Shown here in pieces: positions 1,915 through 63,599 of a DNA stretch of 64,000 bases. This DNA is from Octopus vulgaris (taxonomy: Eukaryota), in NCBI GenBank assembly GCA_951406725.2, contig OX597816.1, positions 149,296,001 to 149,360,000 of the forward strand. The letters run 5' to 3'. Every line of letters begins with the position of its first letter. Positions within the stretch are counted from its first letter, which is position 1. Both the position numbers and the translations under genes were made by a program. Below the pieces are notes generated by a model. That model was not told the DNA's origin. It ran no database searches and saw only the letters and a list, made by a program, of their open reading frames with translations.

Positions 1915-1985
1915 CTGTGGAAGGAAATGCCGCTTCCAGTCTTGTGTTTACTGCTACAACCAAACACAGCACAGAAGTTCACCAT
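1915..1985 (-). CDS. First coding exon of a THAP zinc-finger domain (MVNFCAVFGCSSKHKTGSGISFH-R); rest of domain not found in window
   Basis: Manual translation; not in the ORF track. ATG at 1985, C-x4-C motif, SFHR, then donor CAG|GTAAGA (phase 2) at the position where THAP genes commonly have an intron. Confidence 0.8.
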
Positions 1986-3578: not shown

Positions 3579-3759
3579 CGCGATTAGAACATTTTGTCGG
3601 TGGCATATTCCGGAGTTCAGCTTCCTTTTTTCTCCAGTCCCGAACAAGTTTTTCATTAACACTAAATTGTCTCCCGGCTTCAGAATTATTGGTTTTCAGA
3701 GCCAGCATCACAACTTGTAGTTTAAATTTTGAAGTATATTTCATTCGTTTAAAACCCAT
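3579..3759 (-). CDS. Brinker-type HTH DNA-binding-domain exon (pogo-family transposase-derived)
   Basis: MGFKRMKYTSKFKLQVV...NNSEAGRQFSVNEKLVRDWRKK fits the BrkDBD pattern. Phase-1 donor GCG|GTAAGA after 3579; an alternative phase-1 donor CAG|GTGAGT follows 3528. Confidence 0.8.
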
Positions 3760-4378: not shown

Positions 4379-6407
4379 GAAATGATCCCTCCCTTCCAAT
4401 ATACTGATAATAAATTTTCCTTTATTTCTACTCGAAGCTTGCAAAGAAATACATTTTCTCATTAAATAGTGTCTGCATTCCTTTTTTATTTGGGTTCCTT
4501 AGCCCGTATTTCCCCCTGTACCAGTTCACTATTCCGATCACATCTCCACCCCTATACACACAATAAGAAAAAAGAAGTCCAATACAATACAATTTATTGC
4601 ATAGGATTGACAACCTTATATTAATTTAACATTAATGTCCTTTAAAAAAAAAATCAACAATAAGGAAAATAAACAGCAAAAAAGGTGTGAATAATGCTGA
4701 AGAATAAAAAGAAATCCACACTGGGAAAGAGAGATAGAAAGAGGGAAAGAGAAAGAGAGAGAGTTGTGAGGTTTTCAGCAAACCCAGGATCCGAACTAGA
4801 TTCCCGATGGAAATAGCTGCACAATGTTATTAACACTTGGAAGGGGATAGTCGTAATATCTTTTTCTCATTTCACATAAAACAATTTTTCTAATCTCACC
4901 TCTACAGGACTACATTTCTCTGAAATTCAATTGCATTCTCTTTACCTATTTTATCGAATCTCCATTTAGAAATACTAAAAACTGTTCATTGTTCTCCAAT
5001 AAGAAATGTATAATTTGAAAACAGAACCTCCTCAATTAAAAACCAATTAATAAAAGTATCTTCCACCTTATATAGAACATTTAATAACGTGTTAACTCAG
5101 CTCCACATTACTTAGTTTTGTAGGAGCAGGTAAGTGCCTACATCCCATTCTTTTGTTGAGGGTGAGTGTGGATATTGAAATCTTTCTACTTTGCGATATT
5201 CTGTATATTTTATTGTAATGTCTTCGTCAAAGAAGAACTGGGCCCAGAACACTTTTCAGAGCCTCAATAACTGCTTTCAGGAATTTTATCCTCAGATCGG
5301 GGTTCTGGTGAATATTCTCGCAATAGAATGGGCTCCGCTCACTCAAGGTGGGAATTAAACCGTACAAGAGATTAAGTTTTCCACCCAAGAACAGGAACGG
5401 TCCTTCCAATGAACTTTCACTCAGTTTCTCTCTAACTTCATTCACAACACATTGAAACTGTCAGAAAACCTTTGCCGAAGGTATTGTGTAGAGGAACCTG
5501 AAACAACGCAGCCACGAAGCGATGCTTCCATTTGCACAGCTATACTCACGCCCACTATATGCTTTGATTGTGCGTCTGCATCGATCAAGAGCTAGACAAC
5601 TGTTATTAATCATTCCAGTCCAGTAAATGCGTTAATGATTTTGTTTGGGCGGTATTAAAGAATTAAGTACTCAGAATGAAAGCTGCATCGGAAATGTATG
5701 CTCCTAACGCAAAGTTCCTAAGTCACCCTTTCAGTTCGTTTCTAAGTTTTCTGGGAAAAGACATAACGAATTTCTCCCACCCTCTTTAAGCAAAGTCTAT
5801 GCAAAGATGAACAGTTATAAATCCGTATTTTGCGCGAACTAACCTGAAGTTTGTTTATAAATCCATATTATTGGAGAAAAAAGAAAACCGGAGGTAATTG
5901 TTTACTATTAACGGGCTTGTTTACATTTGAACATGCGTTGCCAAAATCATTAAGACGGGATTTTATGATCCAAAGTAGTCACCATTCTACATTTACTTTC
6001 AAGGAAATGTACTTAGGAATACAGTATCCAATGAGTTCTTCCTTTATTTAAGACCGTGCCGTGTTCATTTGAAGGAAATAAGGATATCTTTAGCAGGTTG
6101 GGGCCCTGCATCGGGTTGCGTCATTCCTTGAAGTAAGACATACTTCTATAACTTCTGTGACGTCATGATAACTCGAATCTTAATCTGACCAATCAGAATG
6201 AGGTAGAAGGTTCGAAAAATTAAGCATCATTATAGAGATGGTGTTGGCGACACAGTGCTGAGTGAGAGAAGAAAACAGCACGAATTGGATAACTATGAAC
6301 AAACGAAACAAAGCAGAAAGGAAGAAACAATATAGATGGACTACAAATTATGCTCATGAACTGAAGAAAAAAAAACATAAAGCAGGTTTCATAGATAGTT
6401 TCTTTAC

Positions 6408-6648
6408 CAAGGTAAATCGTTGGGAGATCATAAGGACTTTCCTTACGGTTGTTCCAGAAATGCCTGCTGCACACCCGATGGTCACGACTTATATGCTTTA
6501 CTTCTTCGTAATTATTTGGGTCATAGCCAGCTCGTCGCATCCACTCATTTCTTAAATGGATATTTTTCCATGGCAGACGGTAGAAGCTAATCGGTCCACC
6601 TTTCTTCTGAAGGGACCGACAGCCTTTCACTATACATTTGGTTGGCAT
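6408..6648 (-). CDS. Complete THAP domain exon (copy A)
   Basis: MPTKCIVKGC...FYRLP...W...VCSRHF...LPTIYL contains the C2CH THAP signature and an AVPTIF-like box. 241 nt, phase-1 donor TTG|GTAAAG. Polypyrimidine acceptor ...TTTTGCTGTTGCAG| before 6726. Confidence 0.88.
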
Positions 6649-12511: not shown

Positions 12512-12755
12512 CGTATTTCGGTATGTATAAACAGCATTTCTGCATAGCACTCAGCCATTCTTTCGCTTGCTTGTTATCATCAGCTGTATTTACTTTCGGC
12601 AGTTTCTCGAGCTTATCTTTCTGCTTTCGCCATTCTCTGACCGATTTCTCATCGACAGTGAATTGTCGACCAGCAGCTCGGTTCCCATGTATTTCGGCAT
12701 AAGCTATCACTTTTAACTTCTGTTTAGCAGAGAACGATTTTCGCGCACGACCCAT
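12512..12755 (-). CDS. Brinker-type HTH DNA-binding-domain exon (second copy)
   Basis: MGRARKSFSAKQKLKVIAYAEIHGNRAAGRQFTVDEKSVREWRKQK is a BrkDBD as in POGK-like pogo transposases. 3' boundary uncertain: weak phase-1 donor ACG|GTACTG after 12512, or phase-0 AAA|GTAAAT near 12593. Confidence 0.75.
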
Positions 12756-13697: not shown

Positions 13698-13940
13698 TCA
13701 AGAGCTTGTATTACTTTCTCCCTGCAAGCGGTGCATGATTATGTGCTTTTTTCTCTCGGATATCCAACCACCAAGTGCGTTAAAAAGTGGAACTCCACGA
13801 AGAGTTACAGAACCATTACAGCTTTTGTACTCACACCTGAAGTAATGATTCTTGTCCCGAGATCGTTGGTGTCGGTAGGTTGTATTCCCTAAAGGATAGT
13901 TTGCCCTTACCTTTCTAGGATTTGACAAATTTGTATTCAT
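13698..13940 (-). pseudogene. FLYWCH-like zinc-finger exon, apparently frameshifted
   Basis: Y-R...YFRCEYKSCNGSVTL. The expected HNH motif (KAHNHAP) is in a neighbouring frame just after an A-run at ~13747-13752. Confidence 0.5.
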
Positions 13941-15141
13941 CCATTATAGGCAAGACGATAATAAAAAACAAAACTTCGCTATTAACAAAAAAAAATAAAC
14001 GGCCAAATCCTCCAGAGTCAACTAAAAACACTCTAACCCTTTTATTTTAACGGTTACAGTTAAGTCAATAATTGTCAGCCGAATATCATTACAGGATTAT
14101 GAAGTCAATTACCAATGAAAAAGTTCCAAGTTTGAACCCTTCCCAAACAGTTTTGTCACTTTTTCAATCCCTAAACTATTTCCTTCTGAACATCATGTAT
14201 GATGAAAAGTACTGGTGCATCAAATTCTATCGCACATATTAGAGGTTTAAATTAAACATAATAGTTAACATATCTAAATTCGAAGCTGAGCTATGAATAA
14301 GATTATAGTTTTTCGGACTATTATCCTCATCTTAAGAAATTAAATATTTTAAAAATCTTAATGCAGGAGAGTTATTATATTTAAAATTCTCTGACAGAAA
14401 GGGGTGTATAGATGCTTAAAAGACAAAACGAGGGGAAATATCTGAGGTATGCATCAGTTTACTCTTTATCTCTATAAGACCGATATGAAAGGTAAACAAT
14501 AAATTAGTTGACAGTCTCTCGGCGGTAAAGCCTCCAGCATGACATCGGTGTTATAGAGTTAAACTATAAACTAACCGAAACGTTCCATTGATCAATTACA
14601 TTGCTATCATTAGAACACAACACATCTCTCGTTGAAATCAGTGTTGTTATTTGGGAACAATTACCTTCAACATCAACTCATACCGATAAATATGTATGTA
14701 CTGAGTGCTTTCTCAATGTTTTAAACTCATAACGCATACATATATATGTGTGTGAATGTGCATTATAGTATGAGGTTAATCGCTGTTTACTGATCTTAGC
14801 TTATTAATATTTTATATTTGTAAACAAATGAAAGCGATCATACACAGTATAACTCTCATTTATTTCCACCACGTTTGAAATATAAACACTCTCTCCCCCC
14901 ACTCAAACTCGTGTGACGTCACGATAACTTAGCTTCATCGACCAATGAAATTGAGGTAGAAATTTCAGGACGCCGACGACATATACACAACATTCGTTTT
15001 TGTATGTGTGTTAAGCTACTTAGTCGTTTTCATTATCACAAAATAGATAGAGGAAAAGAGAAGAGAAACGAGAGGGGTAAAGAGTGAAAATTATATTAAA
15101 AAGAGGAAAAAAAACCAAGTTTTAATAGATAGTTTCTTTAC

Positions 15142-15382
15142 CCAAATAAAACGTCGGTAGATCATAAGGACTTTCCTTGCGGTTGTTCCAAAAGTGCCTG
15201 CTGCATACTCGATGGTCACGACTAATGTGCTTCACTTCATCGTAATTATTCGGATCATAACCAGCGCGTCGTATCCACTCATTTCTTAAACGGACATTTT
15301 TCCATGGTAGTCGGTAGAAGCTAATCGGCCCGCCTTTCTTCTGAATGGAGCGACAGCCTTTCACTATACAGTTAGCCGGCAT
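15142..15382 (-). CDS. Complete THAP domain exon (copy B, paralog of 6408-6648)
   Basis: MPANCIVKGC...VCSRHF...LPTFYL. Same 241-nt length and same phase-1 donor TGG|GTAAAG as copy A; 72/80 identical residues by manual alignment. Confidence 0.88.
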
Positions 15383-17289: not shown

Positions 17290-18650
17290 GCATCATCATC
17301 ATTTAATGCCCGTTTTCCATACTGGCATGGGTTGGATGGTTTGACTAGGCATTGGCAAGCCAGGAGGCTGCACCAGACTCCAGTCTGATCTGGCAATGTT
17401 TCTACAGCTGGATATCCTTCCTAACGCCAACCACTCTGAAAGTGTAGTGGGTGCTGTTTACAGGCCACCAGCTATGTTTGGATGGTGTTTTATACGTACT
17501 ACTGGCACAGGAGCCAGTCCAGGTGGGGGGAGGGGTTGACATCGACCACATTTGGATGGTGCTTTTCATGTGCCATTGGCACAGGGAGCCAGTTGGGCGG
17601 CACTGACAATGACCCCGTATGAATGGTGCTTATTGCATGCCACCAGTATGGGAGCCAGTCAGGCGGCATGAGCATGGGCTAGAACTACAATTACCATTTT
17701 TGATATCGATTTGATTGAGATTCTGATAGTAATTTTACTTGACTCAATAGGTCTCCTCAAGCATGGCATGTCACCCAACAATTCAAAGGTACTTTTTAAA
17801 TGGGCTGGTTATGCGACACTGGAAATAGGCTATGGCTGTGATCTCACTTTACTTGCCGGGTCTTCTCAATCACAGCATACCTCCAGAGGTCTCAGGCTCT
17901 TGTTGTTGCCTCTGTGAGGCCCAATGTTCGAAAGCCGTGCTTCACCACCTCATCCCATGTCTTCCTGGGTCTCCCTCTTCCACTGTTAAGGAGTGACACT
18001 TCTTCACACAACTTTCCTCGTCCATACACAGCACAGCTGTCTCTCTTGCACACATCTGAGGCTTCTTATGTCCAACATTTCTCTCAGGGTGCTTACATTC
18101 TGTTGTGTGTTCACACTGACATTACACATCCAGTGGATCATACTAGCTTTCTGCCGTGTAGTATGGGAATATACACACATGCATCATACAGTTTACCTTT
18201 TACTTTGAGTGAGAGGCCCTTTGTCACCAGTAGAGGTAGGAGCCTTCTGAACTTTGTCCAGGCTATTCTTATTCTAATGGCAACACTCTCTGAGCATCCC
18301 CCACCTTCCGCACAACAGACTAGGTCACCTAGGTAGCGGAAGCTATCAACTACTTCTAGTTTCTCCCCCTGGCGTGTGATGGAATTTGTTTTCTTTGCAT
18401 CTTCTGTGATTATTGCCCCTGTGCATCTGCTGCACACAAAAAGCTATCATCCCGGTTAACCTTCCTTTGATGTCGCTGCATCTCTTATGCATCCATAGCT
18501 TACACTGGGTACATCTTATGGGGTTTCTACCTACACTTTTTCTACAGATCAAGCAGGGCCATCTACCTAAAGGGGTTTGTGATTTGTTTGCCTTCCTACT
18601 TACTAGGACCTTGGTTTTTGCAACATTGATTCTAAGGCCCCCCACTCTTC
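17290..18650 (-). mobile_element. RTE-clade LINE 3' portion with (CAT)n-tailed 3' UTR, degraded
   Basis: ORFs 18346-18645 (GLRINVAKTKVL, CxxC motifs) and 18138-18437 (LEVVDSFRYLG...IRIAWTKFRRLLPLL...KGKLYDACV) are RT thumb/C-terminal regions; frameshifted. Confidence 0.75.
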
Positions 18651-19564
18651 CTGGCCTGTTTCTTTACTCTAATGGCCTTGTCAACTGTATTATTTCAGTA
18701 CCACATTACTCTAAGTCTGGAAGGGACTTTGCACCAGCCATAGATTTGGTCTGTGGTGCTCAGTAAGCTGTCCCATAGGAATTTCCAGTTACCCTCTATA
18801 TCCCAAGTCTCTAGCTCCTCCTCCCTCTAGTCAAATTTCTCAATGAGGATGTCCCTAAGTCTCTGACCATGCAAAAGGTTCTTTAGCTTCCAAATTCTTC
18901 TTTTCTGGATTGGTCTGCTTCTTTGTATCCGTCTGGCCTCGAGTGTAACGTCATTAATGACTAATCTATGCTGGGGGGGGGGGGGGGGTACATTCTTCAT
19001 GAGGGAGGGTCTTTGTATTTAAGAGCAACCTTGCATGTAAAACACGAATTTAGGCAGGGCAAAATGGATAAGACAAGACAAGGTAAATTTGCCCTTCCGG
19101 TTCTCCAGAATTAAATTTGAAAAACAAAGAGTCATACACATAAACATTCATCCTTAGACATCAGAAATTTTAAATATCTTGGTCAATTGAAAGAGGATAA
19201 GGGGAAAATAACACATAATATGAAATTAATGAAACTCAGCTAAGTCTAAAAATTCAATATAAGATATTCTTTATAGCTTCTTGGGCAAAAATTATCCAGA
19301 TATCTTATTAGCTACCTCAATTACAATTGAGTCAAATTTGAGGAAATATTTCTTGAAAATAATACCTGTCACCTATGTTTCAAACTCCCAACTTCAACAA
19401 CTATGTAAACCAGGGATTCTCAACCATTTTTTTACACTGATTCCTATTTCACTCCTGTGGACCCCCCCACCACCACCACACCCATTCAGTGTTTAAAAAA
19501 ATCATATTGTATTTTTATAATTAAATATTATTAGGACTTATATAAAAATTGTTAAAATATTTTG

Positions 19565-26209: not shown

Positions 26210-26249
26210 CAACATCATATTCTTCATTTATCTGATTTTGAGATTTCAA
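26210..26249 (-). CDS. 40-nt internal exon, phase 0 in / phase 1 out (LKSQNQINEEYDV-)
   Basis: Acceptor TTATTTTTTCTCCAG| and donor TTG|GTAAGT; only the phase-0 frame lacks stops. Confidence 0.6.
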
Positions 26250-27225: not shown

Positions 27226-28739
27226 CAGTATCTTGCAAAAATATGTACACCCCTAAACAAATTTCAGTAAAATTGCCATTACTCTGATAATATCGAAGGA
27301 AATCAAACGAAATTTATACAGAATAAAGTATATTATACATGCAAATATACAAATTTGGAATACAAAACAATAAGCATTTTCAAACGATACAAAAATATGT
27401 ACACCCCAAAGAATTATTTGCCATATTCAATATTTGGTGTGACCGTCCTTGCTTTCAATGACAGTTTTCTGGGCATAGAGTCAACTAAATTTCAGCAGTT
27501 AACCGATTAAATCAACCTCCATTCATCCTGAATGATGGCTTTCAACTGTGTTACACTGCGGGGCTTTTTTCTCCTCAACCTTACTTTTCAAAACACCCCA
27601 CAGATGTTCTATTGGGTTGAAATCAGGGGACATGGTAGGTCAAGGCAATGCCTTTTCCTTTTTATATGTTAAAAACTAAGTCGTCATCTTCCTAGTTCTT
27701 TGAGGCTTTTCAACATTGCTTTCTGCAATAAGTCACAATAAAGCCTCGAACCCATTGTTCTCTCAATAAATGTGAGTCCTCCCACACCAGCCGCACGCAT
27801 GCATCCCCAAAGCCTAACACTTCCACCGCCATGTTTCAGGGCAGGCACGGTGCATTTGTCACTATCTTCACCTGGTGGTCGCAATACTCATTTAATACCA
27901 TCTGACACAAACAGGTTGATTTTAGGCTCGTCAGAAAAAAAAAAAACATTCAAAAACTCCTTCCCCTTACTTACGTAGGCTTCGGCAAAAGAAAGACGAC
28001 TTGATTTATGCCTGGTAGTGAGGAGAGGCTTCCTACGAGGAATACGTCCATGAAGACCACACTGGTTCAAACTTCGGCGAACTGTTTGAGCGGATACACT
28101 CTTTTCACTTACAGAAGACACTTCTTGGGCCAAAGATGAAGCGGTACGACGCCTGTCGTCCATCACGCAACGTTGGATGTGTCGAATATCACGCGCAGTT
28201 AAAATAGAAGGGCGACCTGGACGATGTTTATTGCTTAGCCGTCCAGTAGCTTTGTACTTCTGAATTACTTTGGCAATTGTGTTTACGCTAATATCTGTTC
28301 GTTCGCTAATTAACTTGTATCCTAAACCATTCTTGTGCAAATTAAAAATAATTTTCTTCAAATCTTCAGACAATTCTTTTCCTTTTGGTGCCATTTTAAT
28401 CACAATGAAGATTTTCACCACGGTACACAAATAAGAATTCCTGTAGATGCAATAACAGTAACCGGTGCAAAAATGCCAGAAGAAATAATTTATTAGAATT
28501 GAAATTATCAGCAATATTTTGATTTAGTGAAAAAAGTGGATAAAATATTGAATGTAGCAAATTTCCTCTATTGTGTACATATTTTTGTAACGTTTGAAAA
28601 TTAATATTTCGTTCCTATCTTTGAAAATGTTTATTATTTCATTCAGTATAAATTTCGTTTGATTTTCTTCGATATTATTAGTGTAATGGCAATTTTACTG
28701 AAATTTGTTTAGGGGTGTACATACTTCTGTGAGATGCCC
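27226..28739 (-). mobile_element. Tc1-family (IR/DR type) transposon with disrupted catalytic domain
   Basis: ~200-bp TIRs starting TA|CAGTATCTTGC, with repeated AAAAATATGTACACCCC sites. Transposase MAPKGKELSEDLKK...GRP...RRKPLL...FSDE, then frameshift to KHGGGSVRLWGC; second-D region missing; SPDFNPIEHLW remnant. Confidence 0.92.
27975..28394 (-). CDS. Intact Tc1 paired-like HTH DNA-binding region (140 codons); candidate exapted exon
   Basis: Open from ATG 28394 to a phase-0 donor TAC|GTAAGT after 27975; acceptor-like TTATTGCATCTACAG| before 28440. The visible lesions lie downstream of the donor. Confidence 0.45.
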
Positions 28740-29339
28740 TCTCTCTATATATAGATATATAGGTTATGTTTAAAATTAAAGTTTAGATAATATACTTTAA
28801 ATTGTAGTATCGAAAACTTGTTTTGGGCTAATGTCCTTAATAGTGTGCCTTGAGAGCATGTTTACCACATTCGGTTGCCAGGCGTCATCTGCGGTGCTAC
28901 ACTTTAGTCGCAGGATCTACATAAGGAATTCCTCAGTGGACATTTAGTATATTTTTAATAATTGATAGGGAAGACAATGTGTACTACAAGCTTTAATTAG
29001 CATGACAATCATTTCGGCTTACGTTTGAACTACTCCCTAGTGGGTGGAGGACGATATAATGGAAACTTCTAAATCACTATGCCGTGCTTGCACTTATATT
29101 AAACATATATATACACACATGTACATATATATATATATGTATGTATACACACATATATTTACATATATATATATATACATACATATATATACACACATAT
29201 ATATACATATATATATATGCATACATATACACGCACACACACGTATGCACACTTATAGAAATACATATGTGTACATATCTCTTTTACTCGTTTCAGCCAT
29301 GCAGCTGTGATCATGCTGGAGCACCACCATGATCTTTCT

Positions 29340-30125
29340 GACTTCCTCAGTCTGGGTGTTTCACATTACCACTCCTGTATGTGCCTTTGTCCCAGCTGTT
29401 GGTACATTTGGTGTATAAGGGAGTTTGATTCTGCTGCCCTCATGTCGGGCTGTTAGTTCATCCGGTATTGTGGAGAGGAGGATGTCTAGTTCCTTTTTGA
29501 AGACATCTATTTCTACCTTATGCAAATTTCTTAATTTTTGTGGCAGTGCATTGAAGAGCTGTGGGCCTTTGAGCCCTATACTACTGCAGTACCTGGTCCT
29601 GAATTTAGATGGAGTGGATGGCACCTTTGGTACAATACAATGGTGGCCAGTTCTGGCATTTGTATAACACTCAATGCCAAAGTTAGGTACTAGCCCTTCT
29701 AGGATTTTCAATATGTATATTATTGCACATCTCTCATGCCTTTGCTCCAGGGAGTAAAGCAGTAGTTTTCTCAGCTTATCCCTGTAGTTCATCTGCTGCA
29801 CTGTTTCAATCTTTTTAGTGTAGTGGCGTTGAACTGCTTCAAACTACTTAACATCTGTTTTTAAGGAAGTCATGCAGCCACTCTCCAAGATTATCAGCAA
29901 TGCCCTCTGCGAAGTCAAAGTGTATCACACTGACACCTGAATGGTCAAACAGCTGCTTCAAAGCCCAGTCATAGTGCTGTAAAAGCTGTGAGAAGCAGCT
30001 TCTTCCTGGACAGAGGCTATGCTGTGTATTGTTCAGTAGATCATTTTCTTCCAGGAACATTATCAACTTTCTGATGATTTGCTCCATAACTTTACTGATA
30101 TGCGAAGTCAGAGAGATTGGTCTGT
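29340..30125 (-). mobile_element. CR1/L2-group LINE reverse-transcriptase fragments
   Basis: YRPISLTSHISKVMEQII...LNNTQH...GRSCFSQLL...FDFA and C-terminal LYSLEQRHER...GPQLFNALP...FKKELD. Confidence 0.8.
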
Positions 30126-30325
30126 ACATATATATATATATATATACACGTACATCTATATACATGCAACAGGCAACAACAAAATATCCAGACAAATGAT
30201 ACAAAAAGGTAAAAGAAAAAACTAGGATGGGTCATTTCGAGTTTGCTTTGCTCAGTCTTGAGTTAAACCAGCCAAAGCTGCAAGCTTTGGCTGGTTTTAC
30301 TCAAGACTGCTCCAATCTGGCCAGC

Positions 30326-32110: not shown

Positions 32111-34682
32111 CCAAGGCCAAAGAGGCATGTCTTTTATGTCCATGCTCTGTCTCTGACAAATCTCTCCTTGTCCAGTTTTCCCCAATACCTCCCTTTCTGC
32201 CCATCAGTGTCTACCACTCACTGTATTCTCCTCCCCTCTATCTCCCACTCTCCCTTGCAAATCCACCAGAACACTGTCTTTGTCAAATCTTTTCCCATCA
32301 AAATACCTGCCTAACACCCTTCCCTCTACCTGTGGCCATTCACTACATCCCTCTCCCCTCCATCTTCCACTCTCCTTTCACAACATTGCAAACATACCCT
32401 CCCTTCACTCTCCCCTATACCAGGTCTACTTCACTATGTACCCCTCCCTGTAACTTTGATGTATACTCTTTCACATCTTCACTATCTAATCTCTCCCCTC
32501 TCCTCTCTCTCTGAATGAGGTAGCCATGCATCTCATCTACTGTCCCTCTATTCTTCTTATTCTAACATATCACCTGGCACGAAGCCCTCCCTCAGTACTA
32601 TTCCATTCTCAGTTAAGGGGTTTTGTTTTGCAAATTACTAGATAACCTTACTGCTGCTGGTGGCACGAAAAAGGTCCCAGTACACTCTGTAAAGTGCTTG
32701 GCATTATGAAGGGAGCCCAGCTGTAGAAACCATGCCAGCAAGGAAGGAGCATGTTAAATGATGATGATGATGATATACATTATGTAATACACACATACAC
32801 ATACATATAGCATACCATCATCATTTAACATCCATCTTCCATTCTGGCATATATATTATATAAAACAGGGAAAAGATATTTACTTGCATCCAAGTATGAA
32901 TGTAGGCAAATTGATTTTGGAGTTAAAAATGTAATCAGGGCTTAAAATGGATTGTAGGTTTTTTTTTCAATTCAATTTTTTAAAGTCTATTGAAATACTA
33001 TATTAGTTTCAGCATTTAAAAAACTTTTCAATGGTAAATGAAAAGAAAAAAAGAGCAAACAAGATAAAAGAAAATGAACAAGAAAAGTTCCATAGCAACA
33101 AAATCTGTTCAAAAATCAATAGGTTTCAATACAAAATTACATTATGAAAATTTAAGTTTTCGATAAGTTTCATAGCATTAAGAAATGATGAGAGTTCAAA
33201 TATTCATAGTAATAATAATAATTGCAAGAATAGGTTTCAAAGTAATAAGTTATGATAGCAATTTGATATGATGATGATTTTAAGGAATAAAAAAATAATT
33301 TTTTACAAGTCCAATCATGCTGTGTTCATCATTTACTTTATTTGTGGAACTTGAACTAGGTTTTCAGCTGATATTGCTGTGTATAATTTCAGCTGATATT
33401 GTTGTGTTTTAAGACAGTTTCAAGTCCTGATTTGTTTTTCACTCAATGACATAATTTGTTTTTGACAACCAGTGGTCCAGCTTTCTGGTTGGCTGACTGC
33501 CGAAGTGCACTGTTTGTTTATCATATTTTCTGATGATACATTAATGCTCAACAGTAGTCTGAACATGTCTGTGTCCAATGGTGTGGTTGGTTGACTATTT
33601 AAGAACATTATATGTTTAGCAAATATCCTGGTCAGTTGTTTTTTTCTGACAGTTAGTTGGCTGATTCACTTATGATGTCACGGTTGGTTGTATGTATATG
33701 AGCATAACCTATTTTTCCCCCGAATAGACTCAGTTTTAAACAAAAACAAAAATCCCACATAGTGTAATTAAACAGTAATTTGAAGTTAAGTTTTCAAATC
33801 CCAGAGCAAGACAATTTTATAATATATACATATGATACTAATAATAATAATCTCTTATTATAAAAGGCAGATTTTATCTGCCTCCCTTTGTCAGTTATAG
33901 AAATCTACAATATAGGATTTCTTCAATTACAATTTACTTAGCATTTTTAAGAGTAGAATGCATCGGGTTTTGCCAGGTCAACTTTTTAAAATTTAAACTC
34001 CAATTAAGCAAAATTTACAGAAAACTCACATTCTGGTGTGTATGTCAAATGCTTTTCTTAATGTGTTTTACACCACACGCACACACACAGTATGCAACGA
34101 ATAAAATGAAAGTAATTCACCTTTTGTAGTGAGTGACTCTTTCAGTCTGCCACTTCCTCTTTACACACATAGACACGCAAATATATAAATAAAATTGTAA
34201 GCTAACGTGCGTGTGTGTGAGTGTGTGTGTGTGCGTGTGTGTGAGGGTGCGTGTGTGTGTGTGTGTGTGTGCGTGCGTGTGCGTGAGTGTGTGACAGGAA
34301 AGTATTTTAGGACGAATATAAGACCTATATCGGCGATGTTTCGCTTGTCGTAGCACAGGTTTCCATCGATTTCCGTAAAAAACTTTTATTTTTTTACATA
34401 AGTAATGAGAGCGAAAGAGACTAAGAGAAAGCGATTGTATGACGAGGGAAGTTCTTTTGAAGTTACCGTGCATGGGACGCATTGATGTACATGTGTGTGT
34501 GTGTGTGTGTGTTTGATGGAGTGTGGGAGACAGACAGTATGTTGTGTAAGTGAAGTGCTTCTGTTAGTGTGTGTGAAGAGACAGAGAGAGTGATGTGTGA
34601 AAGAGAGAGATAACTGAAATTTTTTACTCGGTTTATGTTATATGTATGTATGCATGTATGTGTGTGTGTGTGTGTGTATGTA

Positions 34683-34713
<31 letters not shown>

Positions 34714-34799
34714 ATGTATGGCCGATTCAGTGTTTACATTTTTTACGGAAATCGACGGAAACGTGTGCTACGACAAGCGAAACATCGCCCCTATATCCA

Positions 34800-35280
34800 A
34801 GTAGCACAGAAAGATCGCCCAAAAGTGTATATAGATATTTAAATGTATTTATATATTCATCTATACACAGATGTATGTATAATGTGTGTGTATATATTTC
34901 CATACACGTAACCATTCACTCCCACAAAGTTTTTTAGGACGAAAATAAGATCTAAAGTTATCTCTAAGTAGCACAGAGATCGCCAAAAGTGTATATAGAT
35001 ATATAAATGTATTTATATATTCATCTATGCACACATGTATGTATAACGTGTGTGTATATATTTCCATAGAGGTAACCATTCACTCCATACAAAGTTTTTT
35101 AGCACGAAAATAAGATCTAAAGTTATCTCTAAGAAACAGAAAGATCGCCCAAAAGTGTATATAGATATTTAAATGTATTTATATATTCATCTATACACAC
35201 ATGTATGTATAATGTGCGTGTATATATTTCCATAGAGGTAACCATTCAATCCATACAAAGTTTTTTAAGGACGAAAATAT
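34800..35280. repeat. ~165-bp tandem repeat, about 3 units, inside the Helitron
   Basis: AGATCGCC(C)AAAAGTGTATATAGATAT recurs near 34812, 34977 and 35142. Confidence 0.85.
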
Positions 35281-35511
35281 TTATATATAAAAGAAAGGTT
35301 GTGTGTCTGTCTACTCCGATTTAGATTCCTAACTACTCCCACATTTTGCGATGCGGGTATCTTATAGTCATGATTCATATCGAGCCCTTCTGGGTATTAG
35401 CGCGCGTCTACGATGAGACTATGATTTTACAAATAATTTACCATCATTTTTTTCCATTTTAATGCATATTTTAAAAAATAAACGGAAGTAACTCTCAAAC
35501 TTCACACCAAT

Positions 35512-36030
35512 ATGCGTGCTCATATGCGACGTAATATCACATCAGCAGCATTTCCTCACACCCTCCTTGCACTTGGCGAAGGCAAAATACCAGGGGATGA
35601 AAATGGTAATATTGCCATCGATTCCATTTGTACCATTGTTAAGACGCCTTCTGATCTCAGAGATGCAGTGTTCCCAGATCTACAAGCTAATTATCAGAAT
35701 ATGGATTGGATTGGCAAAAAGGCTATACTGGCCCCGAGGAATAAAACTGTTCACCATATTAATGATGAAATGCTAAAACTCATTCCTGGGGAAGTCTATG
35801 TATATCAGTCTATCGATACAACTCCTGACCCAGAGGACGTCATCAACTATCCAATAGAGGTACTCAATTCCTTTGAGCACCCCGGACTACCACCACACTT
35901 TCTCAAACTTAAAGTTGGTGCCCCTATAATGCTCATCAGAAATTTGGTTCCCCCAAAACAATGCAATGGCACACGTTTGATCGTTAAGTCCTTATCTCCC
36001 CACCGTAAGCTTATATCAATATTTGCCTGA
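35512..36030 (+). pseudogene. Helitron RepHel PIF1-like helicase fragment
   Basis: AILAPRNKTVHHIN...YPIEVLNS...GLPPHFLKLKVGAPIMLIRNL...CNGTRLIV. Confidence 0.85.
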
Positions 36031-42951: not shown

Positions 42952-43479
42952 CAGAGAATTTCCTTCAGATAATTTTGGATCTGATGGATTTCTGCCGGAC
43001 AGGACTATATTATCGTTTTTCGCTTTACGACTTACTAAATCCTGCCATTGCTCTGTAGGCTTTTCTGTGCTCAAAACAAATTGTGTGGTGGGTGAATTTT
43101 GAAAAGTTTGCAATGTCATTTTAGGGCACTGTATTGTGGGTATCGCTCCTGGCTTCAAGAACACGCGTGTGCGGCATCCGAATTTCTTCATTAAAACCCC
43201 TAGAGAATCATCGCTGGTGAAATGAAGAGAACATATGGCAGATGAAACACATGGTGCCCAGTTTTTACGCCCAGTCTGAACGAAATTGATCCATTTGGAC
43301 CTTAAAACGGGATCCTTCGGAAAGCGATGTAAACTGGTCCCGGATCCTGCACTCGAAGACTGAATGGTATCACAAAATCTAACCACGCAATGTTGGGGCA
43401 TTATTTCGATCGATCTGCTTATCTTCACGATAGATCCAAAACTATCTCTTTTCAAAAATATTTCAGTGAAAATTGCCAC
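42952..43479 (-). CDS. THAP domain exon with C-terminal linker (phase 0/0)
   Basis: MPQHCVVRFC...SLHRFPKDPVLRSKW...ICSLHF...LKPGAIPTI. Acceptor TTCTTTTCTGTTTATGTAG| before 43479; donor CTG|GTAAGT after 42952; 528 nt open. Confidence 0.88.
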
Positions 43480-44150: not shown

Positions 44151-44243
44151 CTTGTTTTTATTGAGTAACAAATCATCTTCATTTATTACATTTTTCATAA
44201 TTTCATTCAGTTTAACGATAACATTTTGCAAATCGCCTGCCAT
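44151..44243 (-). CDS. Candidate first coding exon MAGDLQNVIVKLNEIMKNVINEDDLLLNKNK (phase 0), in frame with the THAP exon at 43479
   Basis: AAAATGGC start context, 31 open codons, donor AAG|GTAGAT; CpG-richer promoter-like region at 44260-44560. Confidence 0.45.
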
Positions 44244-44777
44244 TTTCTTCTTTTTGTTTTGGTAACACGTGCTGCCACCTGATGAGTGTTACCATGTGAT
44301 AACAATCATTCCGTAGCAACAATACAGTTATCTCCCTTTATTTATGTTTCCGAGGCTTCGGAATTCCCGATGACCAATTTTCGATTGTCTAACTTATGAT
44401 ATCACTATGGTGAACTACCTTCTTGTGGCTCTGTCACGAATTAAACTGACGTCATGGCAACAGTATAATGATATTTTTTCTCACACAGCGACAAGGTCAC
44501 ATACATTTTGAGAGACGAGGAAGGCGAAGTTCGATCTCGGAGGGATTTCAAATAACTGTCTGTGATATTTCGTTTTATAATCAGAAAATGAAAGTGGAAA
44601 TACTGACACTAATCGGCAATGACTAGGCGGGTGTTTTGAACAGGCAGAGCACACTTTCCCTCCCCACCATTTTTTAAATCAAAAATTTCTTCGAATTCTG
44701 TTTTCAACAATTTTTTAAAAAAAGAATTCTTAAAAATCCTGAAACCGCTTTCCCGTTTAAAAAATCCAAAATAATAC

Positions 44778-46564
44778 GGTTAATATAGGGCGTTACGATT
44801 ATCAGAAAATCAAAAAAAAAATGTGTGTAATAGGTGTAAAACAACTTCCTATGAACGAATATGAAAAAAAAAAATGCGCTCTCGCGAAGGAGGGGTGGGG
44901 GAGAGGCCTCGGAAAATTTATATCGGGAATTTCCGAAAGCGTCTGAACCGGGCACAAAAACAAAAACAAAAACAGCGTAATAGGTGTAAAACAACTTGCT
45001 CTAAACGACTATGATGAAAAAAATGCGCGCTCGCGAAAGGGGGGTGGGGGAGAGGCTTCGGAAATTTCACATCTTCAGTCCACGGCCTTTAAACTAAGAA
45101 AAAATAGTGTAATTGGTGTAAAACTACTTGTTCTAAACGAGTATCAAGAACACACACTCACACATGAATCATAAACTCCGTATTTTTGTACATATTTCGC
45201 AAAAAAAACAAAAAATAAAGAGAAGAAATTCTGGAAAAAGTGAAGAAATGTTGGATCTCATTCCTTAGTTAAAGCTATTTTAAACATTAAATTTATGCTT
45301 TTCTTTGAAATAGTTCAGATATATGCAATTCTTCTCACTTATTAAGATGCATTTATCAGAAAAAAAGAGACAGAAAAAATTATTATTTTGTGTCAATCCT
45401 TCCCTAATTATCCTTTATTAATTAGTTTTGGCGTGTATTTTTTTCCCAAATTTATTTTTTCACCTTTACAACACTGTTTAGTAAAGCAATTAATTATCTT
45501 TATAATTTGCATATTTGACTTATTAATCAAAATTCTCTCGATGTAATATATACTAAGTAATGCATCCTTCATTTATGTGTTGCGTTCTGTATTATGCATG
45601 CGTGACTGTTTGTATGTAAGTGTGTTTAACTGTGCACATGAATGTGAATATTAAAGAACATATTTATTTACTATGATTGTTATTTTCAGAACAAATAAAT
45701 CTTTTGGCTGTTATGTTATTGATGTTATTATTATTGCTAGTTAAAGGGTGGTGACTTGGCTGAATATTTTGAGTCTTGTAGTATGTAGTTGTGTTAGTCA
45801 ATATTCTGAGTTCAAATCCAACTCATTTCTTTATCATCATTATCGATGGACCACTCAAAGAGGTATGTATACATTATCATTTTCGTAACATAATTTCTGT
45901 AGTATTTCAAGATGTTTCTGACACGTATTTTGATTCACATGGCGGAGATCCAACATTTCTTCACTTTTTCCAGAATTTCTTCTCTTTATTTATTTTTTTT
46001 GCGAAATATGATTTTATGATTCATGTGTGAGTGTGTGTTCTTGATACTCGTTGAGAACAAGTAGTTTTACACCAATTACACTATTTTTTCTTAGTTTAAA
46101 GGCCGTGGACTGAAGATGTGAAATTTCCGAAGCCTCTCCCCCACCCCCCTTTCGCGAGCGCGCATTTTTTTCATCATAGTCGTTTAGAGCAAGTTGTTTT
46201 ACACCTATTACGCTGTTTTTGTTTTTGTTTTTGTGCCCGGTTCAGACGCTTTCGGAAATTCCCGATATAAATTTTCCGAGGCCTCTCCCCCACCCCTCTT
46301 TCGCGAGAGCGCATTTTTTTTTCATATTCGTTTAGAGCAAGTTGTTTTACACATATTACACTATTTTTTTTTTGTTTTGGTGCCCGGGTCAGCCCCTCAG
46401 ACGCTTTCGGAACTTCCCGATGTGAATTTTCCGAGGCCTCTCCCCCATCCCCCTTTCGCGTGCGCGAATTTTTTTTTTCATATTCGTTCATAGGAAGTTG
46501 TTTTACACCTATTACACAAATTTTTTATTTGATTTTCTGATAATCGTAACGCCCTATATTAACC
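44778..46564. mobile_element. Non-autonomous foldback element with long tandem-repeat-containing TIRs (Merlin-like)
   Basis: Ends GGTTAATATAGGGCGTTACG / CGTAACGCCCTATATTAACC; exact 8-bp TSD AATAATAC. Arms ~44778-45260 and ~45945-46564 contain ~125-bp subrepeats. Confidence 0.88.
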
Positions 46565-48185
46565 AATAATACTTTGTCTTGGTTTTGGTTTTAAAAATAC
46601 AAAGATTATGATTCTGCAAAAAAAAAAAAAAAAAACTTTTTTTGTAAAATCTGAATTTCTTAAGGACGATTGCTTACGATAATTTTCCACTTTCATTACG
46701 TTATAAAACGAAAGAATACAAAGGCTGTATATAGGGAGAGTCATTATGCCAATATTATTAACACACACACACACACTGGTTTAATTCCACTCCTTTATAA
46801 TTCATCAGTTAAATATCCAACTAATTGATTGTTTGTTTAATTTGGCTAAACAGTAAGTCATTTGTTTTGTTTTCGTTTGTCAAAGTTCTTTCGTTGCTGC
46901 TTGCAGTAACTTTTGACTTAGTTTGTTACAGAGCATTTTGTCGGTGGAGGTAAAGAATACGTACACCACCGGTTTTCGGCGTAACGAAAACCCTAAACCT
47001 AACCACCGTGTGTACGTATTCTTTACCTTCGCTGCATTTGTCTGCTTGAGATCTTGTTGCATGTGTGTGCGTATGTGTGTATGTATGTGTTTGTGCGCGT
47101 GCGTGCATGCTTCAGTGTGTCTATGCATGGTCATGTCTCTGTCTCCTAGTGTACTTCTGTGTGTGTGTATGTATGTACGACTCTGTCCGTACTACCTATG
47201 AATGTGAATATGGTTACCATAATCTTCTCTGAATGCAACAGCATAATTAACAAAGTGTGATTTAAAAGAGCCTCAACACTTCTTATGAACCACTCCAACT
47301 CTATTCAGCCTATATTTCCACAATGATCACTGGAAATCAGTTAAAGATAATTTGGTTCAAAATTCTCTGTATTTTTTATCTTTTACTTCAGTCATTAGAA
47401 TGTGGCCATGCTTAGACACCACCCTGGAGAATTTTTAGTCAAATGAATCGACCTCAAGACTTATTTTAAGTCTGGTACTTATTCTATCAATCTCTTTTTG
47501 TCAAACCGCTAAACTACGGGGATGTAAACATTAGCACTGGTTGTCAAGCAGAGGGAGGGACAAACACAGACACAAAGATACACACACACACACACACACC
47601 CGATGGGCTTCTTTCAGTTTCCCTTTACCAAATCCACTTACAAGGCTTTGGTCAGCCTGAGGCTATAGTAGAAGACACCTGCCCAAGGTGCCATGCAGTG
47701 AGACTGAACCTGGAACCATGTGGTTGGGAAGTAAGCTTCTTAATACATAGCCACACCTGCATGACATTGATATGAAAATATATTAAATCATGTCAAGTTA
47801 TAACTTAAATATTTTCCAAAAAGGAAGATCCACATTACAGGAAAAAAACAAAATCAGTGACAGGACTATTCTCATCAGTTGAAGAACAAAGATTTCTAAT
47901 TAATTAAATGTACAAACCACTCACACTTAGAAATGTCACTCACAGGCTTTGAACATGAAATAAAATGCCAGCTCTCAAAGCAGGCAGAAACAATTGTTAA
48001 ACAATCATTCCCTTGGATATCATACCTTCCCCAGTGACCACCAGTATGGCATCCATAAAGCAATCTATTAGACACTCTCATATGCCATTCACTAGTGGCT
48101 CTTCATTTTCAACGAAAGTAATGTTATTACATTTTAGATCAGTAAACCTTTGGCTCACTAAGTTAAGTTGCTTGCCTATGGTCTA

Positions 48186-52657: not shown

Positions 52658-53062
52658 TTTGTTCGTGTTTCTTTGTCTTATACATCCAGGAGTATTTGTG
52701 ATAGCCAGTATTTCTGGAACAGATATTGTTGAAATGGGACTGTTTATTGCGACAGATAATCTTGTTGCATGTGATTCCATCGCTCGTATCATCTCTCCTT
52801 CCGCTCTAAACTTATTACTTTTCTCAATGTTCGTCGAATCTTCAGTGTGGTTGTGAGTCTTGTGCAATTTTGTTATTGTGTTGTTACAGATGTGCAACCT
52901 TGCTTTGCAACGCAACGATTTTTTTCTGTAACATGAGTAAAAGCGTGTGTCTTCATCTGTTTTACTCATTTTTTCATAATTGAAAATATATCCTTCGTAC
53001 ATCACTTTGTCGTGACCGTCTGTTACAGGAATCCATATACCGTTATATGGGTTTTGCTCCAT
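52658..53062 (-). CDS. FLYWCH zinc-finger exon (Mutator-transposase-type DNA-binding domain)
   Basis: VMYEGYIF...FYSCYRKKSLRCKARLH...HNH; 135 open codons; phase-0 donor AAA|GTAAGT. Confidence 0.85.
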
Positions 53063-53863: not shown

Positions 53864-54349
53864 CGTAAGTTCCCCGGTTGATGGGCTACCTGCTTCTCCA
53901 GTGGTAATTTTATTACACATTCCATGGCGATTTCTAAATCGCCATAACCACCCATCACTAGCTACAAAATTGTCGATGCCCATGTCCCTAGCTAACTTGA
54001 CAGCAGCACTTTGAATTTCCACACCACGGATGTTATTACCACAAGATCGTTGATGGATAAACCACTTCGTCACAGCTTCCTCAAGATTTGTATCTTTTGC
54101 AACTCTCATACGCTTCCTTGCACCAACAGATAGTTTAGAATTTGCAGCAACATTATATTTCAAAGAAAATGTAGTAAGTTTGTCCTTAGCTTTGCGTATA
54201 CCTGAAACTGTCTGTTTTTTAATACCATATTGAACACAAATACTCGTCACCGAAGCACCAGCCTCTAACTTCTTTATAAGTTCCAGTTTCTGGATCACAG
54301 ATAGAGTAACATGCTTTTTCTTTGGCTTCTTACTTTCTCTTGTAGCCAT
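53864..54349 (-). CDS. CENP-B-type / Tigger-jerky double HTH DNA-binding exon, no DDE domain
   Basis: KKKHVTLSVIQKLELIKKLE...YGIKKQTVSGIRK and LEEAVTKWF...FVASDGWLWRFRNRHG...GEAGS. 162 codons; phase-0 donor ACG|GTATGA; acceptor TAACTTTCAG| before 54365. Confidence 0.88.
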
Positions 54350-54589: not shown

Positions 54590-55085
54590 ACCTTCATTTA
54601 ACGTCCGTTTTCCATGCTGGCATGGGTTGAATGGTTTGACTGGTAAGCTGGGGAGCTGCACCAGGTTCCAGTCTGATTTGGCACGGTTTCTGTGGCTGGA
54701 TGCCCTTCCTAACGCCAACCACTCCAAGAGTGTAGTGGGTACTTGTTATGCGACACTGGCATTGGCCACACTTATGATTTCACTTGGCTTGATGGTCTCC
54801 TCATATCGCCAAAGGTCTTGGTCACTTGTCATTGCCTCTGTGAGGCCCAATGTTTGATGGTCATGCTTCACCACCTTGTCCCATGTCTTCCTGGGTCTAT
54901 CTCCTCCACACATTCCCTCCACTGTTAGAGTTTGGTACATTTTCACACAGCTGGCCTCATCCGTGCACGTCACATGACCATACCAATGCAGTCGTCTCTC
55001 TTGCACACCACATCTGATGCATCTTATGCCCAACTTTTCTCTCAAGACACTGTTGTGCATTCACACTGACATTACACATCCAGCT
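54590..55085 (-). mobile_element. RTE-clade LINE 3' end
   Basis: LREKLGIR...QERRLHWYGHV...VEG...RPRKTW. Confidence 0.8.
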
Positions 55086-55179
55086 TCATTTCTTTCAAAT
55101 CTGCAATCAATTTTACATCTGACACGTGACACACTGTACACCAGTACAGGTAAATACTCTTTTGATAGAGAGAGTGTGC

Positions 55180-56330
55180 ATTGTGCATCGTCCAGGAATG
55201 ATGGCATATCAGCTGAGGTATATGAATATGGTAGCAGTCACCTGCAGAACAAGTTACGTGAACTCTTAATCTGGGAATTAAGATCAGTCCCACAGGAGTT
55301 TAAAGATACCTTTATTGTCCATCTTTATACGCATAAAGGCAACAAATGTGAAAGTGACAACCATAGAGGTATCTCCCTTTTGTGTGTTGCTGGGAAGATC
55401 CTTAGAAAGTTTATCTTAAACAGACTAAATGATGCCCTTGCCAGCTTAGTGTTGCCTGAATCTCAGCATAGATTTTGGGCTGGTAGAGGCACAGTAGATG
55501 TGATTTTTAGCCTAAGGCAGCTGCAGGAAAAGGTTTGTGAGCAGAACCAAGAACATTTTGTTACTTTTGTAGATCTAACTGAAGCTTTTGACACTATATC
55601 TAGGGATGTTCTTTTGGTTGTCCTTAGAAAGCTAGGTGTTCCCAAAAAGATGCCCAATGTCATCATTTCTTTCCATCAAGGGATGATGGCTTCTGTCAGA
55701 TCTAGCGGGTAAGTGTCCGATTCATTCACAGTTTCAAATGAGATGAAACAAGGCTGTGTTCTTGCACTGCTCTTATTTGCTTTGTATTTCTCCATCATGT
55801 TGGAAACAATGTTTGTGGGTGTTAAAAAAGGAGAAAAGTTTGAGTACAGAACTGGTGGTGGCTTGTTCAACCAACTGCACTTCAAAGCAAAAACTAAGAT
55901 TTTGGTACAAGCAGTTCAAGATTTGCTCTTTGCAGATGATTGTGCACTTGTAGCATACACTCTTGAGGACATACAATGGATTCTAAACAACTTTTCATGT
56001 GCATCGAAGGCTTTTGATCTGACCATCAGCATCAAAAAAACTGATCTTGTCCATCTGCTCATTCTTGACCATCTTCCCACTGTTGCCCCTATTGTATATG
56101 TTGATGGGAAAGCATTAAAAACTGTTCTTGGTTCCATTGTGTCCAATGATGCTAAGATGGATAAAGTAATTGTGTCCAGAATCAGGAAGGCTAATTCCAC
56201 TTTTGGTAAGCTTTATCATAGGCTTTGGAACAGCCACAACGTATTGTTGAAGGTGAAAGTCAATGTAAAGAAGTCAGAGGTCTTGACAACATTGCTTTAT
56301 GGTGCTGAATCTTATGAACTTTTCAGCTGA
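55180..56330 (+). mobile_element. RTE-clade LINE reverse transcriptase, disrupted
   Basis: DGISAEVY...NHRGISLL...LPESQ..F..GRGTVD...FVDLTEAFD, stop, KQGCVLA...LLFADDC...LLYGAES. Confidence 0.9.
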
Positions 56331-58118: not shown

Positions 58119-58295
58119 CATCATAAAGTTTTTATGTTTCTTTACATAACGGATTAATGTTGTTTTTGGAATGCTAAATATTTTAGAAGCTTTCATGTAA
58201 CCCAGCTCTCCTTTCAAGACAGCCATAATAGCTCCTTGAAGATTTTCTTTGTGCCATGAACCCTGTTGTGTTTTTCTGCAATAATTCCTCACCAT
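58119..58295 (-). CDS. Pipsqueak-type HTH (HTH_psq) DNA-binding exon
   Basis: MVRNYCRKT...W.KENLQGAIMAV..G.LGYMKASKIFSIPKTTLIRYV. Acceptor TTATTATTTTCAG| directly before the ATG; phase-0 donor ATG|GTAAGT; 177 nt. Confidence 0.88.
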
Positions 58296-62700: not shown

Positions 62701-63599
62701 CAAGTTTACAAAATAGCTTTCAAAGCACTTTTCAGATATTTAATCCCATGTTGAATAAAATTAGGTCTGAAAGTAGGAAGGAAAAAAAATCTAATCTAAA
62801 ATCCTCGTATAACAATGGACAGAAAAAATTGTTTTCTATTTTAGAAATAACGATGACCGAAAAGTAGAAGATCGCCTCAAATATATGTAAATGAATTTTG
62901 TGTCAATGTGATTGTGTACATAATATTGTTAAACACATTTTAATATCTAATAAATTATTACAACAATGATGTTTTTAAAAATTAATGATTGGCCTTTTCA
63001 ATAATATCTGGGGACCTGATTTTCCTATTTTTGGGAATTGTGTATAAGCGTATCTACATTGTATCTACTTGTATTACCTTTGATAGGTTTTGAAACTTTA
63101 CATTTCACTTTCAGTAGCATCACTTCAACGTATAGCTTTGTTATCTTTCCACTCTACAGAATTATGAACTTTTTAGTACTATCATTATTGAGTGAGAAAG
63201 TAATGCATGCCACCAAACTGACACTGGAATACAAATATAAGATGCCCAATATATCCATCATGACTACCCGCCTGATAAGGGTACACCATGCACATGCATC
63301 ACAATCATATGTGCGCAACACGATGATCTTATATCAAGATAAACAGCGTATGACCTTACAACCGGGGCCCAGTTAGAATTTTTTCTTTTTTTTTTTTTTG
63401 ACCTCGAGTAAATCGAATTTTTATTTTCATATATAACATATAAACATGTGCATGTTTTAGAACATTGTCATTTTATAAAATTTTACTGGCAAATTTTAAA
63501 ATTAAGATAGATATTTATTTACATGAAAAAAAATTACCGGAGAACTTTCATTTAATTTTTCCAAATCTTTCTGTTAAAACTATTTGTGGGGAATTTGTT

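Follow-up and report, generated by a model that had tools for sequence, protein, structure and literature searches.

A 40-nucleotide exon of Octopus vulgaris as the probable outermost of four nested shared exons in a BTB gene with alternative DNA-binding heads

Introduction

The clustered protocadherins and UGT1A combine variable first exons with constant exons. At mod(mdg4) and lola, according to the available portion of PMC11426971, a single BTB domain is common to 20 to 30 or more isoforms that carry alternative DNA-binding domains, FLYWCH among them. Here we describe a locus that bears on both arrangements, found in a 64,000-nucleotide (nt) stretch of Octopus vulgaris DNA (assembly GCA_951406725.2, contig OX597816.1, positions 149,296,001 to 149,360,000; the window), and in particular a 40-nt exon on its minus strand. 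It is highly probable that this exon is the outermost of four nested shared exons, here called rungs 1 to 4, which gene models place in one octopus BTB gene, and that the 5' units carrying DNA-binding domains (heads), likely with promoters of their own, are spliced in cis to the nearest rung.

The octopus locus resembles mod(mdg4) and lola in sharing one BTB domain among many isoforms with alternative DNA-binding domains. However, its order is reversed, with an N-terminal variable part and an internal BTB domain, whereas mod(mdg4) and lola have a constant 5' BTB and C-terminal variable domains. The octopus family is also without the TTK FxLRWN motif (0 of 23 proteins), which the available part of PMC11426971 reports as absent from Mollusca. 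Its heads represent six or more unrelated domain classes and use four nested entry exons, and its mapped units are all collinear, with no sign of trans-splicing. With the protocadherins and UGT1A the locus has in common tandem 5' variable exons, likely with their own promoters, that are spliced to shared 3' exons. It differs from them in that its variable exons are not copies of one exon (THAP, FLYWCH, CENP-B/Tc5, psq, BrkDBD and DUF3504 are all represented, although some pairs are duplicates), in that entry takes place at four rungs and in two phases rather than at one acceptor, and in that the product is a predicted DNA-binding protein in which a shared exon completes some of the variable domains. 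It works as mod(mdg4)/lola would in mirror image, with first exons like those of the protocadherins, and because of its BTB position, the absent TTK motif, its several acceptors and its nonparalogous variable exons, the locus is a member of neither class.

Host-transposase fusion genes, as described in the available portion of bioRxiv 10.1101/2020.05.07.082677, likewise have a transposase-derived domain spliced to a host interaction domain. In the octopus gene models the host domain and a transposase-type domain (Pfam families) are encoded by different exons, which splicing brings together. The accessible text of PMC3212892 describes a Crypton DUF3504 domain captured upstream of the BTB domain in KCTD1 isoform b, as is seen in octopus proteins P0007, P0008 and P0011. 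Those are single captures per gene, whereas about two dozen heads share one BTB region in octopus.

The Octopus THAP-BTB and CENPB-BTB factors of Mukherjee and Moroz 2023 (PMC10027918) are the same proteins, and 11 rows there carry LOC106877732. In the parts of that paper available, the isoforms are listed under separate gene names and BTB is treated as part of a transposon; the main text never uses the word "isoform" (0 occurrences), and those parts give no account of a single locus, of tiers or of shared exons. Molluscs and THAP go unmentioned in the available text of PMC12062965. No description of the locus was found in the open-access full-text literature, a scope outside which supplements and most subscription papers fell, and in RefSeq the isoforms of the locus are uncharacterized.

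Results

The 40-nt exon is a genuine feature of the window, confirmed in the sequence, and consists of a polypyrimidine tract with CAG, 40 nt and GTAAGT.

26249-26210, minus strand: 40-nt shared exon (rung 1), entered in phase 0 and left in phase 1, encoding a 13-residue acidic linker

When splice sites were scored with simple, unfitted weights, the strength of its acceptor was equalled by 5 of 3797 minus-strand AG sites in the window and that of its donor by 17 of 3685 minus-strand GT sites. Strong acceptor-donor pairs 25-150 nt apart numbered three in the window, and the 40-nt exon was the sole pair open in any phase. Entry in phase 0 gave 13 codons plus 1 nt without a stop; phases 1 and 2 ran into stops. 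An earlier reading made from the sequence only (the sequence-only reading) had described just such a strongly bounded exon, open in phase 0 only, and the splice scores and the frame check agree with it.

A search with the THAP exon that ends at donor 42952 led to isoform X6 of O. bimaculoides LOC106877732, in which a THAP part leads into the peptide of the 40-nt exon and BTB comes further on; on sequence grounds the window is the Octopus orthologue of that locus. Proteins of the locus number at least 34 and come from O. bimaculoides, O. vulgaris, Argonauta and, under LOC115209932, O. sinensis; isoform names run as high as X36. Of the 32 members of the largest isoform cluster, 15 were listed. 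Counts for the locus cover 34 proteins, and junctions are those of gene-model proteins unless cDNA is named; rungs 2-4 and the BTB exons are represented here by proteins and fragments of cDNA. The distal exons with donors at 58119, 53864, 52658, 44151 and 42952 join the 40-nt exon, exons 15142, 12512 and 6408 bypass it and join the same next exon (rung 2), and all of these proteins end in a common BTB region. The proposal that distal and proximal exons belong to a single gene is borne out by these models. The peptide of the 40-nt exon follows differing heads in nine models (P0001, P0003, P0005, P0006, P0044, P0047, P0053, P0054 and P0069), as had been predicted, and rungs 2-4 are all retained in 9/9.

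PF00651 was present in 18/18 locus models scanned, most of which had THAP, CENP-B, psq or DUF3504 heads. The BTB domain occupies residues 372-475 of P0001, C-terminal to the variable part. Its closest solved structures were generic BTBs (NS1-BP, E 1e-9; ZBTB18, SLX4 and BCL6, weak). In the ESM Atlas, P0127 matched generic BTB clusters only (0.76), and a search with residues 1-370 of P0042 gave no usable match.

At least 24 distinct 5' units were counted in the 34 proteins (the fused model P0067 was left out), with entry at rungs 1, 2, 3 and 4 for 6, 5, 8 and 5 of them, respectively. The entry phases of rungs 1-4 are 0, 1, 0 and 0. Phase 0 at the inner two rungs follows from read-through proteins, which go on with Val (GTN) at 2/2 rung-3 and 2/2 rung-4 junctions tested. 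Rung 3 is a THAP tail. The zinc ligands of THAP domains are of the C2CH type, and in P0042, P0043 and P0046 the variable part stops just past the third zinc-ligand Cys, so that the final His ligand of these half-THAPs comes from rung 3.

In the mechanism that we favor, each upstream DNA-binding exon would start at its own promoter, and each 5' unit, which in the sequence and the gene models keeps the rungs beyond its entry point and ends in the shared BTB region, would be spliced in cis to the nearest downstream rung. A new exon would survive only if its donor phase matched the first rung that it met, and for that reason the partition of phases would follow position.

The sequence-only reading had assigned to the 40-nt exon the role of an adapter from phase 0 to phase 1, through which distal exons reach the same phase-1 constant acceptor as proximal ones. 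The exon does shift the phase, and both groups do reach the same acceptor in models and cDNA, but that acceptor is rung 2 of four rather than a constant exon, and the adapter is not the sole in-frame route. An unlikely extension of this idea is that a preexisting phase-0 cluster could be joined only via a recruited exon of length 3n+1, with phase conversion as its selected job. The length of the exon, its being open only in phase 0 of the upstream group, its position exactly between the groups and its presence in 9/9 distal-tier models all fit this proposal, and because rung 2 precedes the later rungs, a shift would be needed if splicing cannot skip rung 2. However, rungs 1 and 2 together add 30 codons with a net phase shift of zero (from P0001), and position and phase are partitioned at every rung, a pattern for which the nearest-rung rule accounts without special adapters. 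Phase 0 is also the entry phase of rungs 3 and 4, through which exons that end in phase 0 could be carried to BTB without loss of frame, so the 40-nt exon is not an indispensable adapter. It shifts the phase, but likely as an inherited linker, not as a part recruited to rescue the phase-0 group.

Scaffold positions for O. bimaculoides were taken from Table1.XLSX of PMC10027918, in which 15 matches, minus one duplicate row and one row of the neighbor LOC106877745, left 13. All 13 distinct locus rows with coordinates lie on a single strand in exact tier order over ~180 kb, with the tiers for rungs 1 to 4 as follows.

r1: 500111-475194
r2: 449631-440936
r3: 376125-352005
r4: 325126-320408

It is improbable, more so than a dedicated adapter, that short head transcripts are joined in trans to a separate rung/BTB transcript. 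The distance of ~180 kb from outer to inner tier would suit trans-splicing, as would the read-through head-only proteins P0004, P0059, P0062, P0066 and P0068, and Drosophila BTB loci with variable exons (mod(mdg4) and lola) are trans-spliced according to the available part of PMC11426971. However, the read-through proteins may derive from unspliced RNA or DNA, and the position of a unit goes with its entry rung, as expected from cis-splicing but not from free trans-splicing. The collinearity of 13/13 units on one strand makes trans-splicing unnecessary, without excluding it.

In the window, the Pfam scan took in 210 open reading frames (ORFs). The variable exons and related features, including helix-turn-helix (HTH) exons, are as follows.

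58119..58295, minus strand: HTH_psq exon, internal in models (PF05225, ORF 58325-58095; 57/59 versus P0054); phase 0 to rung 1
53864..54349, minus strand: CENP-B_N and Tc5 HTH exon (Pfam, ORF 54376-53861; 153/162 versus P0005); phase 0 to rung 1
52658..53062, minus strand: FLYWCH exon (Pfam, ORF 53083-52604; 135/135 versus O. vulgaris P0069); phase 0 to rung 1
44151..44243, minus strand: short domainless 5' coding exon (P0044, P0003); phase 0, to rung 1 directly or to acceptor 43479
42952..43479, minus strand: THAP-A exon (ATG 43401, acceptor 43479, ORF 43479-42934; 146/150 versus P0001); phase 0 to rung 1
27975..28394, minus strand: unverified candidate donor exon, the 5' ORF (HTH domains) of a decayed Tc1 at ~27226-28740 (ORF 28523-27891); in-frame GTAAGT, phase 0
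15142..15382, minus strand: THAP-B exon (Pfam, ORF 15406-15125; 80/80 versus P0052; cDNA junction); phase 1 to rung 2, which lies outside the window
13701..13943, minus strand: FLYWCH-like remnant between two live heads, with an early stop/frameshift (own hidden Markov model, E 0.11, no Pfam hit: weak)
12512..12755, minus strand: Brinker-type HTH exon (BrkDBD, ORF 12791-12459; 79/81 versus P0049); phase 1 to rung 2
6408..6648, minus strand: THAP-C exon (Pfam, ORF 6675-6223; 80/80 versus P0045; cDNA junction); phase 1 to rung 2
3579..3759, minus strand: candidate second Brinker-type HTH exon (PF09607, E 2e-11, ORF 3765-3508); phase-1 donors 3579 and 3528
1915..1985, minus strand: first exon of the THAP-D unit (23/23 versus P0041; Argonauta P0009; read-through cDNA of KOF74722)

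Nine of these exons were matched to models, and 9/9 stop exactly at GT in the expected phase with 94-100% identity; phase 0 accounts for five (58119, 53864, 52658, 44151 and 42952), phase 1 for three (15142, 12512 and 6408) and phase 2 for one (1915). The junctions of 15142 and 6408 are also present at the nucleotide level in cDNAs in the supplement of PMC10027918. Recomputed phases agree with the earlier assignment of phase 0 to the distal donors 58119, 53864, 52658, 42952 and 27975 and of phase 1 to the proximal donors 15142, 6408, 3579/3528 and, probably, 12512. Seven of the ten variable donors named in that assignment (58119, 53864, 52658, 42952, 15142, 12512 and 6408) coincide exactly with junctions in gene-model proteins. 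Donors 27975, 3579 and 3528 were in none of the models listed, and the Tc1 and 3579 heads had no row in Table1.XLSX of PMC10027918, a table that does not cover those families. The phase-0 donor 44151 and the phase-2 THAP first exon 1985-1915 are additions to the sequence-only reading. Its claim that distal exons enter the 40-nt exon stands as far as the junctions go, but 58119 is internal, fed in models P0053 and P0054 by a THAP exon outside the window.

THAP-C is a tandem duplicate of THAP-B (90% amino acid identity). THAP-D is a multiexon unit with a phase-2 intron within the domain; from its final exon, which lies beyond the window, rung 2 is reached in phase 1. Absent from the window are the THAP found upstream in P0053, the CENP-B head of P0057 and the exons of P0041 that follow 1915..1985, and the donor for the "MQ" model P0047 was not pinned down among four candidates there. 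It is possible that the FLYWCH-like remnant at 13701-13943 is a dead variable exon. Other Pfam matches in the window were mostly retroelement and Helitron-like debris. Decayed pieces of non-LTR (long terminal repeat) retrotransposons (RVT_1) lie in introns between heads at 17400-18700, 29360-30230 and 54700-56330.

The Tc1 element has inverted repeats identical at 166/191 positions. The first 168 codons of its ORF are open, with several stops and frameshifts beyond (judged by eye), and its CpG observed/expected ratio (o/e) is 1.15 before donor 27975 and 0.47 after it. Alone among the heads, this candidate has its donor within native transposase coding sequence. These features are compatible with capture, but the 5' ORF remains a candidate captured exon: its donor sits within transposase coding sequence of the ordinary kind, has rank 93/3685 among GT sites and is unused in the models listed.

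CpG o/e was 0.68-1.20 at 9/9 putative first exons, a range whose lower bound is reached by 33% of 1-kb windows; the 40-nt exon had 0.19 and the internal exon 58119 had 0.04. Retention of CpG is linked with unmethylated promoters, and it suggests that each head likely has a separate promoter. A CCAAT-like box and a TGACGTCA palindrome lie ~200 nt past the donors of both duplicated THAP exons (6140-6200 and 14900-14950, minus strand), from which it appears that the duplication took in a promoter-like element of the intron. A further TGACGTCA is found at ~44450, upstream of the short exon 44151-44243. A CpG-rich island at 34000-36030 contains a 166-bp tandem repeat (34806-35279) and adjoins a Pif1 helicase fragment (35482-36030, plus strand), Helitron-like debris. 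The CpG-rich region 44500-47000, just upstream of the short exon and THAP-A, has 155-bp repeats (46115-46536) and a duplicated ORF (44947-45174 and 46014-46241, plus strand). CpG o/e climbs again at 62500-64000, and this may be the edge of an island at the promoter of the unit that comes next upstream.

Searched with a profile, 1.84 billion representatives yielded 166 matches at E 0.001, and several of the 30 that were domain scanned had THAP, FLYWCH, CENP-B, DUF3504, STPR or CG-1 ahead of an internal BTB. Names for 10 matches led to more multi-isoform octopus loci, LOC106879774/LOC115220336 (at least two entry points) and LOC106872006, and to Haliotis rufescens LOC124116851. In models from three Haliotis species, a rung-3-like peptide comes after a complete THAP, the entry of CENP-B and FLYWCH heads is deeper, and one BTB region takes in THAP, CENP-B and FLYWCH heads at three depths; P0199 has a half-THAP, a rung-3-like tail and a distant BTB. 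The tiered design is, in these models, common to octopus and abalone. The rung-3 match to Haliotis scored 98, versus 46 for the best of 1000 shuffles. However, Lingula, Capitella and Nematostella have the rung-3-like tail too, in THAPs that stand alone or are linked to a transposase, and because it is common in non-BTB THAPs, the match is weaker evidence for common descent. In a BTB tree of 57 rows, a 29-row clade with support of 97/96 held most cephalopod rows and Haliotis was not placed as its sister, so octopus-Haliotis orthology is not established.

Within Argonauta, P0009 keeps rungs 2-4, and one model has a Brinker and Tc5 segment without an orthologue in the window. In Argonauta P0002, an unreliable model, Gly follows the THAP-A orthologue where Octopus read-through has Val, a difference that might reflect a donor in phase 1 and the lack of rung 1 there. 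LOC106877738-45 and LOC115209901 (P0016, P0018, P0021, P0014, P0020 and P0072) form a tandem array of head-plus-BTB paralogues adjoining the locus; LOC106877745, with FLYWCH and CENP-B isoforms, starts ~20 kb beyond the last mapped tier. The paralogous BTB gene LOC106872006 (P0078, P0239 and P0240) has isoforms with an HTH and DDE_3 transposase-like segment between head and BTB, which the close relative P0077 is without.

Discussion

The earlier model was largely right, and the larger ladder of which the 40-nt exon is the first step is apparently undescribed. Several points weigh against the reading of that exon as the outermost of four nested shared exons serving own-promoter, cis-spliced heads. 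The nine putative first exons fall in approximately four CpG islands and are not independent, and a scan for promoter motifs gave at most an approximately twofold excess on tiny counts, with no clear enrichment. Some units are multiexon or chained (P0003, P0053), so that one first exon per isoform is too simple a description. No homologue of rung 1 was seen outside Octopus among the proteins compared. The junctions come from annotation-pipeline models, and the O. vulgaris models, whose names are copied from their RefSeq hits, may be homology guided. RefSeq isoform models normally rest on introns from RNA sequencing. The least credible alternative, that separate small transposon-derived genes or relics are chained to a BTB gene by rare read-through splicing, could draw on this dependence on gene models and on ab initio models that wrongly fuse such exons (P0002, P0067), but it is very hard to reconcile with exact canonical junctions in 9/9 exons, heads that have no catalytic domains of their own and stop at donors, strong conservation among Octopus species, a head-rung junction kept in Argonauta and the recurrence of the design in three Haliotis species and at further octopus loci.

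Under the nested-exon reading, the heads would be 5' ends of DNA transposons (THAP, pogo/CENP-B, psq, Brinker-type, FLYWCH and Crypton DUF3504) captured upstream of BTB and then duplicated or lost. For the BrkDBD family we take a transposon origin as given. For the other head families such an origin is described in the available parts of PMC10027918 and PMC3212892. Turnover of heads is suggested by the THAP pair with 90% identity, the weak FLYWCH-like remnant and the Argonauta Brinker and Tc5 segment that has no orthologue in the window. Isoforms would dimerize via their common BTB and present a single co-regulator surface at many sites on DNA, as BTB biology would lead one to expect; DNA binding by the heads, BTB dimerization and co-regulator recruitment are predicted activities. 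One gene with about two dozen swappable, likely transposon-derived DNA-binding heads likely acts as a whole transcription factor family.

A far-reaching version is possible but doubtful: that this is an ancient molluscan transposase-trap locus, shared by octopus and abalone through common descent, in which a BTB body still goes on absorbing DNA-binding heads from unrelated transposon superfamilies via a ladder of shared exons, builds THAP fingers that are split across a variable-shared junction, is now capturing the Tc1 exon at 27975 and forms a one-gene repertoire of transposon-recognizing regulators, a molluscan counterpart of the KRAB zinc fingers.

If the nested-exon reading is correct, the strategy of mod(mdg4) and lola would have been invented a second time, independently, in molluscs, where its polarity is reversed and its heads are far more diverse. 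The number of transposon-derived transcription factors counted in Octopus would change, since many of the listed THAP, CENP-B, psq and FLYWCH "genes" would be isoforms of one locus. The ladder would offer a testable growth rule for such clusters, in which the nearest shared exon sets the allowed phase, together with a natural series of captures of differing age. Through promoter choice and BTB dimerization, one locus could yield cell-specific combinations of DNA-binding specificity.
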